DNA of 64,000 nt from Eubacteriales bacterium (GTDB lineage Bacteria; Bacillota; Clostridia; Oscillospirales; CAG-272). Below the pieces are notes generated by a model, which was not told where the DNA came from, ran no database searches, and saw only the letters and a list, made by a program, of their open reading frames with translations. The stretch is taken from positions 82,540 to 146,539 of the forward strand of contig JBJDZH010000011.1 in assembly GCA_051867895.1 (NCBI GenBank). Direction: 5' to 3'. Position numbers and translations under genes: made by a program. Shown here piece by piece: positions 1-5,314 of the stretch; the first letter of the stretch is position 1; the number at the start of each line of letters is the position of its first letter.

Positions 1-211
1 CAGCCAGAACCACGGCTATGCGGTCGTGCCGGATACGCTGCAAAACGGCAGCGTCCGCTTCGTCAATGCAAACGACGGCACCTGCGAGGGGATCGATTAT
101 CCGTCCCTGAACGCGTTTACCGTGCAGTTCCATCCGGAGGCATGCTCCGGACCGCAGGATACGGAATTTCTCTTTGACCGGTTCATTTCCATGATGGGAG
201 GTACGCACTGA
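1..211 (+). CDS. carA: carbamoyl-phosphate synthase small (glutaminase) subunit, C-terminal fragment; 5' end lies outside the window
   Basis: Frame 2 reads SQNHGYAVVPDT...FTVQFHPEACSGPQDTEFLFDRF, the class-I amidotransferase end of CarA. The stop at 209-211 overlaps the carB ATG (TGATG). Confidence 0.85.
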   Translation, partial: SQNHGYAVVPDTLQNGSVRFVNANDGTCEGIDYPSLNAFTVQFHPEACSGPQDTEFLFDRFISMMGGTH

Positions 212-3200
212 TGCCGCGCAATCCGGAAATCAAAAAAGTAATGGTCATCGGCTCCGGTCCCATCGTGATCGGACAGGCTGCCGAATTCGACTACGCGGGA
301 ACGCAGGCGTGCCGCGTTCTGCGCGAGGAGGGCGTCAACGTCGTTCTCGTCAATTCCAATCCTGCCACGATCATGACGGACAGCGCCATGGCGGACGAGA
401 TCTATCTGGAGCCGCTGACGGCGGAAACAGTCAAGCGTATCATCGAAAAGGAGCGCCCCGACAGCCTGCTTGCGGGACTGGGCGGACAGACCGGTCTGAC
501 GATCTCCATGCAGCTTGCACGGGAGGGCTTCCTCGATAAAATGGGCTGCCGCCTGCTCGGTACGAACGCCGAGGCGATCGACCGCGCTGAGGACAGAAAG
601 CTGTTCAAGGATACGATGGACGCGCTCGGACAGCCGACGATCCCCTCCGAGATCGCAAACGATGTGCCCCACGCGCTGGAGATCGCCGCACGGATCGGAT
701 ACCCGGTCATCATCCGCCCCGCCTTCACGCTCGGCGGCGCGGGCGGCGGCGTGGCATATACGCCCGATGAGCTGCGGGAGGTCGCTGCGGCAGGACTGGA
801 GATGTCTCCGATCACGCAGGTGCTGGTGGAGAAATACATCTACGGCTGGAAGGAGATCGAGTTTGAGGTCATGCGCGACTGTGCGGGCAACGCCATTGCC
901 GTGTGCAGCATGGAGAACTTCGACCCGGTCGGCGTCCACACCGGCGATTCCATCGTGGTCGCGCCCGCGCTGACGCTCTCCAATCAGGAATACCAGATGC
1001 TTCGCACCGCCTCGCTGCGGATCATTCAGGAGCTGAAGATCGTCGGCGGCTGCAACTGCCAGTTCGCTTTGAACCCGGACAGCATGCAGTACGCCGTCAT
1101 CGAGGTCAATCCGCGCGTCTCCCGCTCCTCTGCGCTCGCCTCCAAGGCGACGGGCTATCCGATCGCCAAAATCACGGCAAAGCTCGCGCTCGGCTACACG
1201 CTTGACGAGATCAAAAACGATATCACCGGCGTTACCTGCGCCTGCTTTGAGCCTGCGCTCGATTACGTCGTCGTCAAATTCCCGAAGTGGCCGTTCGACA
1301 AGTTTGCCGGTGCGCACCGCACGCTCGGTACACAGATGAAGGCGACGGGCGAGGTCATGGCGATCGCGCCGACCTTCGAGGCGGCGATCATGAAGGCGGT
1401 GCGCGGTGCGGAGATCTCCCTCGATACGCTGAACGCAAAACCGCTGGACAGCCGTCCGCTCCGCGAGAGACTGACAGACTGCGACGACAGGCGCCTCTTT
1501 ACCGTATTCGAGGCGATCAAGGCGGGGATGCCCGACCGGCTGATTCATGAGATCACTAAGATCGACAATTTCTTTCTGGATAAGCTCCGCAAGCTCGCGG
1601 AATATGAGGATCGCATCGCCGGCGCGGGACTGACGGAGGAGTCCTACCGGGAAGGAAAGCGCCTCGGCTATACGGACTCCGCTCTCCGGCGCATTTCCGG
1701 TGAGAGCAGCATGCCGCATGCGGACGCGTCGTATAAAATGGTCGATACCTGCGCGGCGGAGTTCCGCGCGGAAACGCCGTATTTCTATTCCGTCTACGAC
1801 CGCGAATGCGAGGCGCGCGCCTTCGCGCGTTCGGACAAGCCGCGCATCATCGTGCTCGGCTCCGGTCCCATCCGCATCGGACAGGGCATTGAGTTCGACT
1901 ATTCTTCCGTTCACTGCGTCTGGACGCTGAAAAAGCTCGGCTATGATGTTGTCATCATCAACAACAATCCCGAAACCGTCTCCACCGATTACGATACGGC
2001 GGACCGGCTGTATTTCGAGCCGCTGACGGAGGAGGACGTGATGAACGTCATCCGGGTGGAGCAGCCGATCGGCGTCGTCGTCGCGTTCGGCGGACAGACC
2101 GCCATCAAGCTGACGAAATTCCTCGACCACGCGGGGATTCCGATCCTCGGCACCTCCGCCGACGGCATCGATACCGCCGAGGACCGCGAACGATTTGACG
2201 CGCTGCTGGAGAAATTCGGCATCCGCCGCCCGCAGGGCTGCGGCGTCAAGACGACGGAGGAGGCGGTCGAGGCGGCGGCGCGCCTCGGATATCCGGTACT
2301 GCTGCGTCCTTCCTACGTAATCGGCGGACAGAACATGATGATCGTCCACAGCGAGAGCGAGGTGCGCCGCTATATGGGACGTATTCTCTCCGGCGGAATC
2401 GAGAACCCCGTGCTGGTGGACAAGTACATGAGCGGCACGGAACTGGAGGTCGACGTCATCTCCGACGGCAAGGACGTCCTGATTCCCGGCATCATGGAGC
2501 ATATCGAGCGCGCTGGCGTCCACAGCGGCGACTCCATCGCCGTCTATCCGCCCTATAATCTGACGGACAAAATGATGCAGACCGTCGCGGAGAATTCCAT
2601 GAAGCTGGCGCTCTCCCTCGGCACGAAGGGGCTTGTCAATATCCAGTACCTCATCTACGGCGGCGAGCTGTATGTCATCGAGGTCAATCCGCGCGCCTCC
2701 CGCACCGTGCCGTATATCAGCAAGGTTACCGGCGTGCCGATGGTCGATCTGGCTTCCCGCGTCATGTGCGGCGCGCCGCTCGCGGAGCTTGGATACGGCA
2801 CGGGCCTGTACCGGACGCCGCCGTACTGCGCTGTCAAGGTGCCTGTGTTCTCCTTTGAAAAGCTGACGGACGTCAACTCCAATCTCGGACCGGAGATGAA
2901 GAGCACCGGCGAGGTACTCGGCGTCGGCAAGAACATCCGTGAGGCGCTCTTCAAGGGACTGTGCGCTGCCGGCTTTAAGCTGAAATCTCCCCGCGAGTAT
3001 CCGGGCATCGGCGTTTTCATCAGCGTGGACAACCACGATCTGCCGGAGGCGGTCGGGCTCGCCAAGAAGCTCGACGATCTCGGCTACAGGCTGTATGCAA
3101 CGAAGGACACCGCCGGCATGATCGGTACGCTCGGCATTGACGCCGTATGCGTTCCCGGCGTATGCGAGAGCGGTGAGGTATTCCGCCTGCTGGAGGAAGA

Positions 3201-4245
3201 GAAGCTGGCCTGTGTCGTGTACACCGGCGCGCTGTACGACTCCACGCTGGATGACTATATCGCGCTCCACCGCCGCGCGCTGCTCTCCGGCGTCGCGTGC
3301 CTGTCGTCGCTCGACACGGCGAACGCCTTCGCGGACACGATCGCCAGCCGCTACAGCGAGCAGAATACGGAGCTGGTCGATATCACACGTCTGCGTCGTG
3401 AGCGCGGCAGACTGCATTTCTCCAAGATGCAGGGAAGTGCGGATGACTATATCTTCATCGAGAATTTCGACGGCTCGATCTCCTGCCCGGAATCGCTGTG
3501 CATTCTCATGTGCGACCGGCATTACGGCGTCGGCGCGCTCGGCATCGTTCTGATGGAGCACTCCGATGTGGCGGACGTGAAGATGCGCGTGTTCAACAGC
3601 GACGGCAGCGAGGGCAAGATGGCGGGAAACTCTATCCGCTGCGTCGGCAAGTACATCCGCGACCATGGAATCGTCGATAGGGATGAGATCACGGTCGAGA
3701 CAGCGAGCGGCATCCGCCGCCTGACGCTGTACATGCGCAACGGACTGGTTGGCTCCGCGTGCGTGGATATGGGCGCGGTCTCCCTGGCGGCGAAAGATGT
3801 CCCCTGTACGCTCGGACCGGAGCGTATCGTGAACGAGCCTGCCGTGATCGGCGGCAGAGAATACCGTATCACGTGCGTCAGCGTCGGAAATCCGCACTGC
3901 GTCGTCTTTGTCGATCGCGTGGATCCGGTGGATGTGGAGACGATCGGACCGGAGTTTGAGTATGCACCGATATTCCCGGAGCGGACGAATACGGAATTTG
4001 TGCGTGTCGTCAACCGCAATACGCTGAAAATGCGCGTCTGGGAACGCGGAAACGGGGAAACGATGGCGTGCGGCACCGGCGCGTGCGCGGCGGTCGCAGC
4101 CGCTGTGGCGAACGGTTTGTGCGAAAAGAATGAGGAAATCACAGTCAAGACGCACGGCGGCGATCTGATCGTGCGCTATACGGATGAGAGCGTTACGCTC
4201 ACTGGGAAGGCGTCCCTGGTTTACGAGGGTTATATTGAATACTGA
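211..4245 (+). CDS. carB: carbamoyl-phosphate synthase large subunit fused in frame to a C-terminal diaminopimelate-epimerase-like domain (1344 aa)
   Basis: Two ATP-grasp halves are visible (VMVIGSGPIVIGQAAEFDYAG and IIVLGSGPIRIGQGIEFDYS, IEVNPRVSRSSALASKATG, IEVNPRASRT) plus an MGS-like end. The ORF then continues about 277 aa without a stop into DapF motifs. Confidence 0.9.
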   Translation: MPRNPEIKKVMVIGSGPIVIGQAAEFDYAGTQACRVLREEGVNVVLVNSNPATIMTDSAMADEIYLEPLTAETVKRIIEKERPDSLLAGLGGQTGLTISMQLAREGFLDKMGCRLLGTNAEAIDRAEDRKLFKDTMDALGQPTIPSEIANDVPHALEIAARIGYPVIIRPAFTLGGAGGGVAYTPDELREVAAAGLEMSPITQVLVEKYIYGWKEIEFEVMRDCAGNAIAVCSMENFDPVGVHTGDSIVVAPALTLSNQEYQMLRTASLRIIQELKIVGGCNCQFALNPDSMQYAVIEVNPRVSRSSALASKATGYPIAKITAKLALGYTLDEIKNDITGVTCACFEPALDYVVVKFPKWPFDKFAGAHRTLGTQMKATGEVMAIAPTFEAAIMKAVRGAEISLDTLNAKPLDSRPLRERLTDCDDRRLFTVFEAIKAGMPDRLIHEITKIDNFFLDKLRKLAEYEDRIAGAGLTEESYREGKRLGYTDSALRRISGESSMPHADASYKMVDTCAAEFRAETPYFYSVYDRECEARAFARSDKPRIIVLGSGPIRIGQGIEFDYSSVHCVWTLKKLGYDVVIINNNPETVSTDYDTADRLYFEPLTEEDVMNVIRVEQPIGVVVAFGGQTAIKLTKFLDHAGIPILGTSADGIDTAEDRERFDALLEKFGIRRPQGCGVKTTEEAVEAAARLGYPVLLRPSYVIGGQNMMIVHSESEVRRYMGRILSGGIENPVLVDKYMSGTELEVDVISDGKDVLIPGIMEHIERAGVHSGDSIAVYPPYNLTDKMMQTVAENSMKLALSLGTKGLVNIQYLIYGGELYVIEVNPRASRTVPYISKVTGVPMVDLASRVMCGAPLAELGYGTGLYRTPPYCAVKVPVFSFEKLTDVNSNLGPEMKSTGEVLGVGKNIREALFKGLCAAGFKLKSPREYPGIGVFISVDNHDLPEAVGLAKKLDDLGYRLYATKDTAGMIGTLGIDAVCVPGVCESGEVFRLLEEEKLACVVYTGALYDSTLDDYIALHRRALLSGVACLSSLDTANAFADTIASRYSEQNTELVDITRLRRERGRLHFSKMQGSADDYIFIENFDGSISCPESLCILMCDRHYGVGALGIVLMEHSDVADVKMRVFNSDGSEGKMAGNSIRCVGKYIRDHGIVDRDEITVETASGIRRLTLYMRNGLVGSACVDMGAVSLAAKDVPCTLGPERIVNEPAVIGGREYRITCVSVGNPHCVVFVDRVDPVDVETIGPEFEYAPIFPERTNTEFVRVVNRNTLKMRVWERGNGETMACGTGACAAVAAAVANGLCEKNEEITVKTHGGDLIVRYTDESVTLTGKASLVYEGYIEY
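3412..4245 (+). other. DapF-like (diaminopimelate epimerase fold) domain inside the carB ORF
   Basis: LHFSKMQGSADDYIFIE resembles the DapF N-terminus (M.F.KMHG.GNDY/F). Both catalytic Cys contexts are present: GNSIRCVGKY (Cys codon 3640-3642) and ERGNGETMACGTGACAAVAAA (Cys codon 4078-4080). Confidence 0.8.
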
Positions 4246-4262: not shown

Positions 4263-4604
4263 ATGCCATACGTTCATATCAGCACCTCGGCGGAGCTGTC
4301 CGCCGAAAAAAAGAGCGCGCTTTTGGAAAAGATCGCGCTGCTGCTCCCGATCCTGCCGGGCAAGAACCGGAACAACGCCATGGTGCAGCTCGACGGAAGC
4401 TGCTTTATGGCAATGGGCGATCCGTCGATCTCCTGCGCCTTCGCCGAGATCCGCCTGTACGGAAAGTCGCCTGCGGCGGCAAAGGAGAAATTCGCTGCGT
4501 CGCTGACGGAGCTGCTCTCCGGAGCACTCGGCGTCCCGACGGATCACGTGTATCTCAACTACTTTGAGATGGATCACTGGGGCATGAACGGAACGGTGAT
4601 CTGA
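4263..4604 (+). CDS. MIF-family tautomerase (Pro-1 tautomerase superfamily)
   Basis: GGAGG RBS 7 nt upstream. The N-terminus is MPYVHI (Pro-1 after Met). LPGKN and the C-terminal VYLNYFEMDHWGMNGTV fit the MIF-domain pattern. Confidence 0.65.
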   Translation: MPYVHISTSAELSAEKKSALLEKIALLLPILPGKNRNNAMVQLDGSCFMAMGDPSISCAFAEIRLYGKSPAAAKEKFAASLTELLSGALGVPTDHVYLNYFEMDHWGMNGTVI

Positions 4605-4708: not shown

Positions 4709-5314
4709 TCAGGTGCCGAGATAGGCGATCATCAGCTTCAGCGCGCGGACGACCTCGGATATGGGCAGAAACGGTGTCCCCGCCGGGAAGCAGGCGAGCT
4801 GTGACTCGTCCGGCGGAATGTGGATAAAGCCGCAGCGAAGACGCGGGTCGTTCAGCTCCGCATAGCGCAGGAGACGGTAGAAGAGATTGTTGCAGACATA
4901 TGTACCCGCGGAGTAGGAGATTTTCGTCGGGATGCCCGCCTCGCGCAGAAGCTGGGACAGCTCGCGCAGCGGCAGACGCGAGGAGACCGATTCCGGTCCT
5001 GCGGGATCGATCTTTTCTCCGCTGAAGGTGATGCCCGCGTTGTCCGGCGCGCTGGCGGCTTTTACGTTGACGGCGGTGTTTTCCAGGGAAACGCCCTCGC
5101 GTCCCGCTGCCTGCCCGAGACAGAGGACGGCGTCCGGTTGCCAGCGGTCGAGCATTGCGTCGAGCATGTCGCCGCAGCGGTCGTAGACGACGGGAATCTC
5201 CGCACGCAGGATCTCATGCTCTCCGAGCGTGTCGGGAAGACGCCGCACCGCTTCATAGGAAGGATTTATTTTACTTTTCCCAAACGGAGCAAAACCCGTA
5301 ATCAAAAACCGCAT
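4709..5314 (-). CDS. pcp: pyroglutamyl-peptidase I (pyrrolidone-carboxylate peptidase)
   Basis: MRFLITGFAPFGKSKINPSYEAV..., GTYVCNNLFY (catalytic Cys context) and GFIHIP (His context). Confidence 0.9.
   Translation of the reverse strand: MRFLITGFAPFGKSKINPSYEAVRRLPDTLGEHEILRAEIPVVYDRCGDMLDAMLDRWQPDAVLCLGQAAGREGVSLENTAVNVKAASAPDNAGITFSGEKIDPAGPESVSSRLPLRELSQLLREAGIPTKISYSAGTYVCNNLFYRLLRYAELNDPRLRCGFIHIPPDESQLACFPAGTPFLPISEVVRALKLMIAYLGT

Follow-up and report, generated by a model that had tools for sequence, protein, structure and literature searches.

The window analysed here, a 64,000-nucleotide stretch of contig JBJDZH010000011.1 from a member of the Eubacteriales (assembly GCA_051867895.1), contains near its start carB, the arginine-operon gene encoding the carbamoyl-phosphate synthase (CPS) large subunit, to which a domain derived from the diaminopimelate (DAP) epimerase DapF, probably no longer an epimerase itself, is joined in frame. 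The preliminary description of this DNA had reported an uninterrupted open reading frame (ORF) of 1344 amino acids (aa) in which a complete CarB runs directly into a DapF-like domain, and both statements were borne out: in the ORF listing of the window the frame is single and unbroken over its 1344 codons (Table 1), the junction reads ...TRLRRERGR followed at once by LHFSKMQG, as quoted there, and both parts match their profiles end to end. The CarB part matches NF003671 with 1424.3 bits (cut-off 599), aa 1-1048 aligning with positions 1-1050 of the 1058 in the profile, and TIGR01369 with 1374 bits (cut-off 1027), and consists of PF25596 (twice), PF02786 (twice), PF02787 and the allosteric domain PF02142, the last scarcely above its cut-off (24.5 versus 24.1). 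The C-terminal module matches TIGR00652 with 266.9 bits (cut-off 114.65), aa 1069-1342 aligning with positions 2-268 of 270, and contains two stretches of PF01678, the DAP_epimerase lobe. In an AlphaFold2 (AF2) model of residues 553-1344, built with 52 sequences in the alignment, the DapF-derived module reached a predicted local distance difference test score (pLDDT) of about 90 or more and the linker appeared as coil (pLDDT 65-78), with a predicted template modelling score (pTM) of 0.75; the sequences flanking the linker, NTEL and F..K, are invariant in the alignment of relatives.

The fusion is genuine and ancient, and it is widely distributed among uncultured Oscillospiraceae and Ruminococcaceae of the gut. 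Of the 120 best matches in a collection of 5.8 billion proteins, nearly all are 1336-1348 aa long and contain PF01678, their NCBI or JGI name, where one is given, being 'carbamoyl-phosphate synthase large subunit'. Relatives are encoded in 138 species-representative genomes, and the best 80 of these 138 all belong to metagenome-assembled genomes (MAGs) of uncultured Oscillospiraceae, Ruminococcaceae, Acutalibacteraceae, Feifaniaceae and similar groups from human and animal guts. When sister genomes were searched, in a sample of 201 evenly chosen genomes of the order in which a fusion was defined as a DapF match within an open frame longer than 1200 aa, 49 (the source genome counted) carried the architecture. 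The preliminary description had weighed a genuine fusion against a recent loss of a stop codon and an assembly or indel artefact; the first is supported by the database matches, the order sample and the conserved length of the junction. The other two, an artefact or a stop codon lost very recently in the source genome alone, can practically be dismissed, because architecture, length and junction are conserved, in the same frame, across independent assemblies that number in the hundreds and come from several projects and hosts; the closest relative, 84% identical over aa 553-1344, likewise has the frame unchanged. We found no description of a CarB-DapF fusion, or of a DapF pseudoenzyme of this kind, in the literature searched (GapMind 2026 included). 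The frames of related loci were picked by phmmer, the longest ORF being an unsuitable choice since antisense frames stay open in GC-rich DNA; at the window locus an antisense frame of 1390 codons spans the whole carB::dapF gene, most likely as a by-product of GC-rich codon bias.

The module shares the two-lobe fold of DapF over its full length (TIGR00652; 2otn, 9mro, 3ejx, 5h2g, 2gke), with up to ~50% identity, and, like these proteins, it has the second catalytic cysteine, the helix N-termini and a complete recognition sub-site. Unlike them it is fused behind CarB, and its catalytic sub-site differs at three positions, which were mapped by alignment to the solved DapFs (B. anthracis 2otn, 9mro, and Arabidopsis 3ejx). 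The motif around the first catalytic cysteine, (S/M)CGNG(L/I)RC in solved DapFs, is KM-A-GNSIRC in the window protein, with Ala1138 (its GCG codon three base changes away from TGC) in place of the thiol; the asparagine of GxGNDF is replaced by Asp1078, and the conserved Asp of GxGADG by leucine. The preliminary description had rightly read GSADDY at the GxGNDF/Y motif. It had also listed both catalytic cysteine contexts, of which only the second is present: the GNSIRC cysteine at 3640-3642, taken there as catalytic, is Cys1144, a conserved non-catalytic residue in the alignment of solved DapFs, and the position 4078-4080 given for the second cysteine is that of Gly1290, the true codon, of Cys1287, lying at 4069-4071. 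In Corynebacterium glutamicum DapF the substitutions C83A, C221A, N15A, N74A, N85A, N159A, N194A, E212A, R213A and T223A each cost nearly all activity (PMC5296763); the correspondences C83 = A1138 and N15 = D1078 are set by motif and spacing. Because the thiol on one face has become alanine and the essential asparagine has become aspartate, the module is predicted to be unable to act as a canonical two-base epimerase.

Table 1. Features of the fused gene and its immediate surroundings, in window positions (Hi and Cg, residue numbers of the DapFs of Haemophilus influenzae and C. glutamicum).
Feature	Position	Strand	Basis or remark
carA, 3' end (CPS small subunit)	1..211	+	NF009475, 452 bits
carB::dapF-like fused ORF	211..4245	+	1344 aa plus stop; ORF call, Pfam/NCBIfam profiles
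CarB module, aa 1-1048: two ATP-grasp halves, oligomerisation domain, divergent MGS-like allosteric domain	211..3354	+	profiles; alignment to E. coli CarB 1a9x
Linker, aa 1049-1068, ...SEQNTELVDITRLRRERGRL	3355..3414	+	length conserved in relatives
DapF-derived module, aa 1069-1344, full two-lobe fold	3415..4242	+	profiles, PDB alignment, AF2
Asp1078 at the essential Asn position of GxGNDF (Hi N11, Cg N15)	3442..3444	+	PDB alignment; motif reads GSADDY
Asn1129 (Cg N74), recognition sub-site, invariant	3595..3597	+	homologue alignments
Ala1138 (GCG) at the first catalytic Cys position (Hi C73, Cg C83)	3622..3624	+	PDB alignment, homologue alignments
Cys1144, conserved non-catalytic Cys of GNxxRC, six residues past Ala1138	3640..3642	+	PDB alignment
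Asn1227 of GNPH (Cg N159), recognition sub-site, invariant	3889..3891	+	homologue alignments
Asn1260 (Cg N194), recognition sub-site, invariant	3988..3990	+	homologue alignments
Glu1278-Arg1279 (Cg E212-R213), DAP amino/carboxyl contacts, invariant	4042..4047	+	homologue alignments
Cys1287-Gly1288-Thr1289: second catalytic Cys (Hi C217, Cg C221) and helix N-terminus holding the proximal carboxylate	4069..4077	+	PDB alignment; Cys codon 4069-4071
113-aa ORF, MIF/tautomerase-like	4263-4604	+	begins Met-Pro; 18 nt past the fused gene
Pyroglutamyl-peptidase I (pcp)	4709-5314	-	convergent on the end of the arg-car operon
Antisense frame, 1390 codons	97-4269	-	spans the whole carB::dapF gene

Among 117 close full-length homologues the first cysteine was found in none (91 have Ala, 3 Gly and 2 Ser, and 21 were missed by the search pattern), and the second is kept in all. 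Conservation was then read from two sets of relatives without the first cysteine (hereafter Cys-less), one of 152 domains and one of 68 species-level loci, which may overlap. Cys1287 is invariant in all 220 members (152 + 68, overlap possible), and both sets also agree throughout at N1129, G1139, R1143, GNPH (1226-1229), N1260, E1278-R1279, E1283-T1284 and C1287-G1288, among which are, in H. influenzae numbering, N64, N157, N190, E208, R209 and C217-G218. Taken together, the invariant positions make up the whole recognition sub-site plus the second thiol. Changes are limited to the catalytic sub-site, where Cys has become Ala, Asn has become Asp, the neighbouring Tyr has become Phe, and GNG has become GNC or GNS; Asp stands at the Asn position of GxGNDF in 74% of the 152 Cys-less domains and in 64 of the 68 close loci, and the Asp of GxGADG is variable among Cys-less domains. 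The ratio of non-synonymous to synonymous substitution rates (dN/dS; Nei-Gojobori, close pairs, all of the Ala type) is 0.01-0.1 for the module, close to that of the C-terminal half of CarB. The DapF-derived module is not decaying, and purifying selection on it is as strong as on CarB.

One way to account for this pattern, which we regard as improbable, would be a new enzyme that performs a one-base reaction (an elimination, an isomerisation or the racemisation of a different amino acid) on a DAP-like compound linked to arginine metabolism. Among the relatives of proline racemase, those that have a Cys/Thr pair act as dehydratases, and both the invariance of Cys1287 and the new consensus of the catalytic sub-site (A-G-N-C/S and D-D-Y-I-F), which does not resemble random drift, would suit such a reaction. 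DapF homologues with other substrates are also on record, namely the O-ureido-serine racemase 7vdy, a histidine racemase (PMC11602996) and the diaminobutyrate (Dab) racemase PddB (PMC8225329). However, the recognition sub-site is the same as in DapF and gives no sign of a new substrate head-group, while the position of the first cysteine is occupied by A, G, S, F or Y depending on the branch, which looks like a role that was lost and not like a new catalytic residue that was gained. To our knowledge, moreover, the known DapF homologues with shifted specificity keep both cysteines.

The need for an epimerase in this position was assessed by comparing three markers across the same 201 genomes, namely a stand-alone DapF, the meso-DAP dehydrogenase Ddh (TIGR01921) and the state in which the fused domain is found; kin are not independent, and the comparison is given as counts. 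Thirty-six relatives have a Cys-less fused domain: 27 of them possess a stand-alone dapF with the first cysteine and the other nine all possess Ddh, so that an alternative route, by stand-alone dapF and/or Ddh, is present in 36 of 36. No sampled Cys-less relative depends on the fused module for its epimerase. Ddh was also detected in all 12 searched congeners of the window's genus. The preliminary description had raised the matter of a second, stand-alone dapF, and of a C-terminal domain that is inactive as an epimerase, with a canonical dapF elsewhere; no stand-alone dapF was found in the 77%-complete source assembly, and the relatives, all with a stand-alone dapF or Ddh, largely conform to the latter picture. 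meso-DAP is supplied by another route in the Cys-less relatives and presumably also in the source genome.

A working bifunctional enzyme, in which LL-DAP would be converted to meso-DAP by Cys1287 together with another base (water or Asp1078), is very unlikely for the window's lineage, where the module is without the catalytic cysteine and the essential asparagine; the C83A and N15A variants of C. glutamicum DapF are nearly dead (PMC5296763). The idea draws on the invariance of the entire substrate pocket and the second cysteine, on the module being the only DapF-like sequence found in the source assembly, and on a probable need for DAP in this organism, indicated by the presence of dapA and of a MurE that keeps the arginine of the DAP motif (DNSR). 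It also draws on five sampled genomes, discussed below, where a fused domain with both cysteines evidently is the sole epimerase. Against it stand the other routes of the 36 Cys-less relatives, the Ddh of the congeners and the incompleteness of the source assembly. The LL-DAP aminotransferase DapL, which would make the LL-DAP, was moreover not found with TIGR03542 in the source genome (G000), in the closest relative (G204) or in G071 and G103; TIGR03540, which gave no match over its cut-off, is the wrong model for these taxa. The neighbourhood of dapA in the source genome holds no other DAP genes. Two MurE-family genes over cut-off were seen in that genome (G000:C28:162827-164251 and G000:C1:66573-67958), one with DNSR, compared with DNPR in the meso-DAP motif, and the other with DNPD, a hint that it uses another amino acid as substrate or is a ligase paralogue.

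The order sample contains the same fusion in a second state: 12 of its fused domains keep the first cysteine (Cys+) and 37 are without it (mostly Ala; also Ser, Gly, Phe and Tyr). The Cys+ fusions of sister lineages (for example in G001, G041 and G104) share with the window protein the architecture, the junction and the side of the DapF tree; unlike its module, they retain both cysteines and the asparagine, and they are probably true bifunctional enzymes. Just one of the 12 Cys+ genomes has a stand-alone dapF, and the remainder divide into six with Ddh and five with neither; the last five, all of one family and 95-99% complete, evidently have the fused domain as their only epimerase, judging by their gene content. 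In G041 the second gene downstream of the Cys+ fusion is one for an LL-DAP aminotransferase (TIGR03542, 534 bits), and look-alike aminotransferase genes were read by eye at the same position in G067 and G080.

Gene orders around these loci vary. At L183 (G041:C44:162535-164600), and also at L181 and L188, the Cys+ fusion is followed by nadE (NAD synthase) and then by the LL-DAP aminotransferase gene, and at the Cys+ loci L178 and L180 an ORF of ~505 aa resembling GMP synthase (guaA; by eye) follows instead. A congener of the source organism has an unfused operon of carB, a dapF with both cysteines and a dapL (TIGR03542, 470 bits) at G210:C62:12174-17339 (L153 covers part of it), in a genome that carries a Cys-less carB::dapF fusion and Ddh besides. 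Adjacency of carB and dapF was also seen on contig G202:C14. A general placement of carB upstream of stand-alone dapF was considered and dropped, because of 26 loci checked just 2 show this order, each of them from the genus of the window; nor are the carB-adjacent stand-alone dapFs fission products of the fusion, for they group with the stand-alone dapFs on the tree.

Trees of 65-70 DapF domains place the window module within a clade made up of 28-30 Cys-less fused domains, for which the Shimodaira-Hasegawa-like approximate likelihood ratio test (SH-aLRT) gives a support of 98-99. A single branch has all of the fused domains to one side, a topology that would allow the fusion to have arisen once. 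The state of the first cysteine requires at least four changes on the tree.

The fused gene is predicted, from its neighbours, to encode the CPS of an arginine operon. The genes argC-argJ-argB-argD-argF-carA-carB follow one another on the same strand; carA starts upstream of the window (at ~G000:C11:81689), and its TGA stop (209-211) overlaps the ATG of carB (211-213) as TGATG, suggesting that the two are translationally coupled. The arrangement recurs in related loci: in 59 of 62, carA ends less than 200 nt ahead of the fused gene, and in 57 of 58 argF lies upstream. As in bacterial CarB (E. coli structures 1a9x, 1bxr, 1jdb, 1ce8) and the arginine-specific CPS of Firmicutes (carAB of the B. 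subtilis arg operon), the same full-length profiles, duplicated ATP-grasp halves, and oligomerisation and allosteric domains are present, with carA likewise directly upstream inside argCJBDF-carAB; the window protein differs from these in its ~296 extra C-terminal residues. Its CarB part has all the hallmarks of a large subunit that would be active as the CPS of an arginine operon. It appears to be a second, arginine-linked CPS, because an unfused CarB is present in each of the 13 other species of the genus and a fused one occurs only in G000, G204 and G210; the unfused paralogue of the source genome is probably located in the missing 23% of its assembly.

The allosteric domain of the fused CarB is divergent. 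On its own it had no relative in the PDB at 1e-5, while a longer piece did align to E. coli CarB. At the positions of E. coli K954, T974, G976, T977 and K993 the alignment gives Leu, Thr, Asp, Thr and Gly in the window protein, so that the equivalents of the two lysines differ from E. coli CarB, whereas in the closest relative the unfused paralogue retains all five. In E. coli CarB, T977 and K993 have been tied to inhibition by and binding of uridine monophosphate (UMP), K993 being the UMP-binding lysine (PMC6245113).

Taken as a whole, these observations point to an arginine-pathway CPS that has retained a DapF-derived module in a non-epimerase role, either regulatory (ligand-binding) or structural, a reading to which we assign a probability of roughly 0.6; we infer that the module is no longer the epimerase of the cell. 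On this account the fusion would have kept CarB as the catalytic large subunit of the arginine-operon CPS, the DapF fold would have lost its canonical two-base epimerase capability, meso-DAP would be supplied by Ddh or a stand-alone DapF, and the module would have taken on a new, non-epimerase role within the synthase. Most likely its pocket would bind DAP or a DAP-shaped L-amino acid and tune CPS activity; alternatively, the module might be a fixed structural or oligomerisation element.

Several points weigh against this account. Its main weakness is that Ddh, stand-alone dapF and lysA (over cut-off) were not found in the source assembly, which is 77% complete, and that the fused module is at face value the sole DapF-like protein there. 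This gap is most plausibly one of the assembly: the unfused CarB, present in all 13 congeners, was not found there either, lysA was over cut-off in all four other-genus genomes searched, and a set of neighbouring housekeeping genes probably escaped assembly in the source genome. In addition, a remaining cysteine that never varies is easier to reconcile with residual chemistry than with pure binding, and the support for the branch that unites the fused domains is weak, being 88 and falling to 26 after more rows were added.

Within the non-epimerase reading, a purely structural relic, in which the module is kept for the folding or oligomerisation of CPS and binds no ligand, is unlikely. The conserved length of the linker and the pTM of the multi-domain model are in its favour, as is the dimeric state of stand-alone DapFs (PMC5296763), and a precedent exists in the inactive dihydroorotase-like domain of the yeast CPSase-ATCase URA2 (PMC6245113), another disabled enzyme fold retained in a CPS polypeptide, albeit of a different fold and pathway, eukaryotic, and internal where the window module is C-terminal. 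What a scaffold leaves unexplained is that five polar ligand-contact residues and a buried thiol are invariant among more than 200 sequences that are only ~65% identical overall.

That the module serves CPS as a ligand-binding (effector) unit is a tentative proposal, to which we give somewhat less than even odds. Its specific form, held a little more loosely, is that the module may be a new allosteric sensor of CPS that replaces a lost control by nucleotide effectors and couples arginine flux to DAP, ornithine, arginine, citrulline or lysine. The invariant pocket, the low dN/dS and the loss of the equivalent of the UMP-site lysine are circumstantial to this proposal. A precedent for a DapF fold that regulates another enzyme is E. 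coli DapF, which activates RppH by contact (PMC6061791, PMC4227774), although there the DapF is free and catalytically active, its partner is an RNA pyrophosphohydrolase and no fusion is involved. As to candidate ligands, we can only speculate: besides DAP itself, arginine, citrulline, ornithine and lysine would be near-isosteric, with the same L-amino-acid head and a spacer of three or four carbons, and the change from Asn to Asp falls in the catalytic sub-site, which would receive the far end of such a ligand.

Two further genes lie at the end of the operon (Table 1). The 113-aa ORF next to the fused gene scores 38.7 bits with PF01187 and 30.3 bits with PF01361, of the MIF/tautomerase families, and matches none of the NCBIfam models; as a conserved partner of the fusion it was rejected, since among 80 related loci it is found downstream only in the closest relative (L073). 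Beyond it the pcp gene faces the operon, a position at which it occurs in 0 of 80 related loci.

For the window's lineage, the reading of a complete, active DapF appears to be wrong, and the case is better described as a CPS carrying a putatively disabled, enzyme-derived module. Automatic annotation lists these proteins as a plain CPS large subunit. Pathway tools that are aware of the DapF domain would credit an epimerase to a genome that probably does without it here, with distorted reconstructions of lysine and peptidoglycan synthesis for many abundant gut Oscillospiraceae and Ruminococcaceae as the consequence. The unfused carB-dapF-dapL operon, the fusion with both cysteines and the fusion with one form a natural series in which one enzyme is absorbed into another and its role changes. 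If the module is indeed an effector site, it would represent a new mode of CPS regulation, and, if a sensor, it would tie the flux through the arginine pathway to the sensed metabolite in a large group of gut Clostridia.

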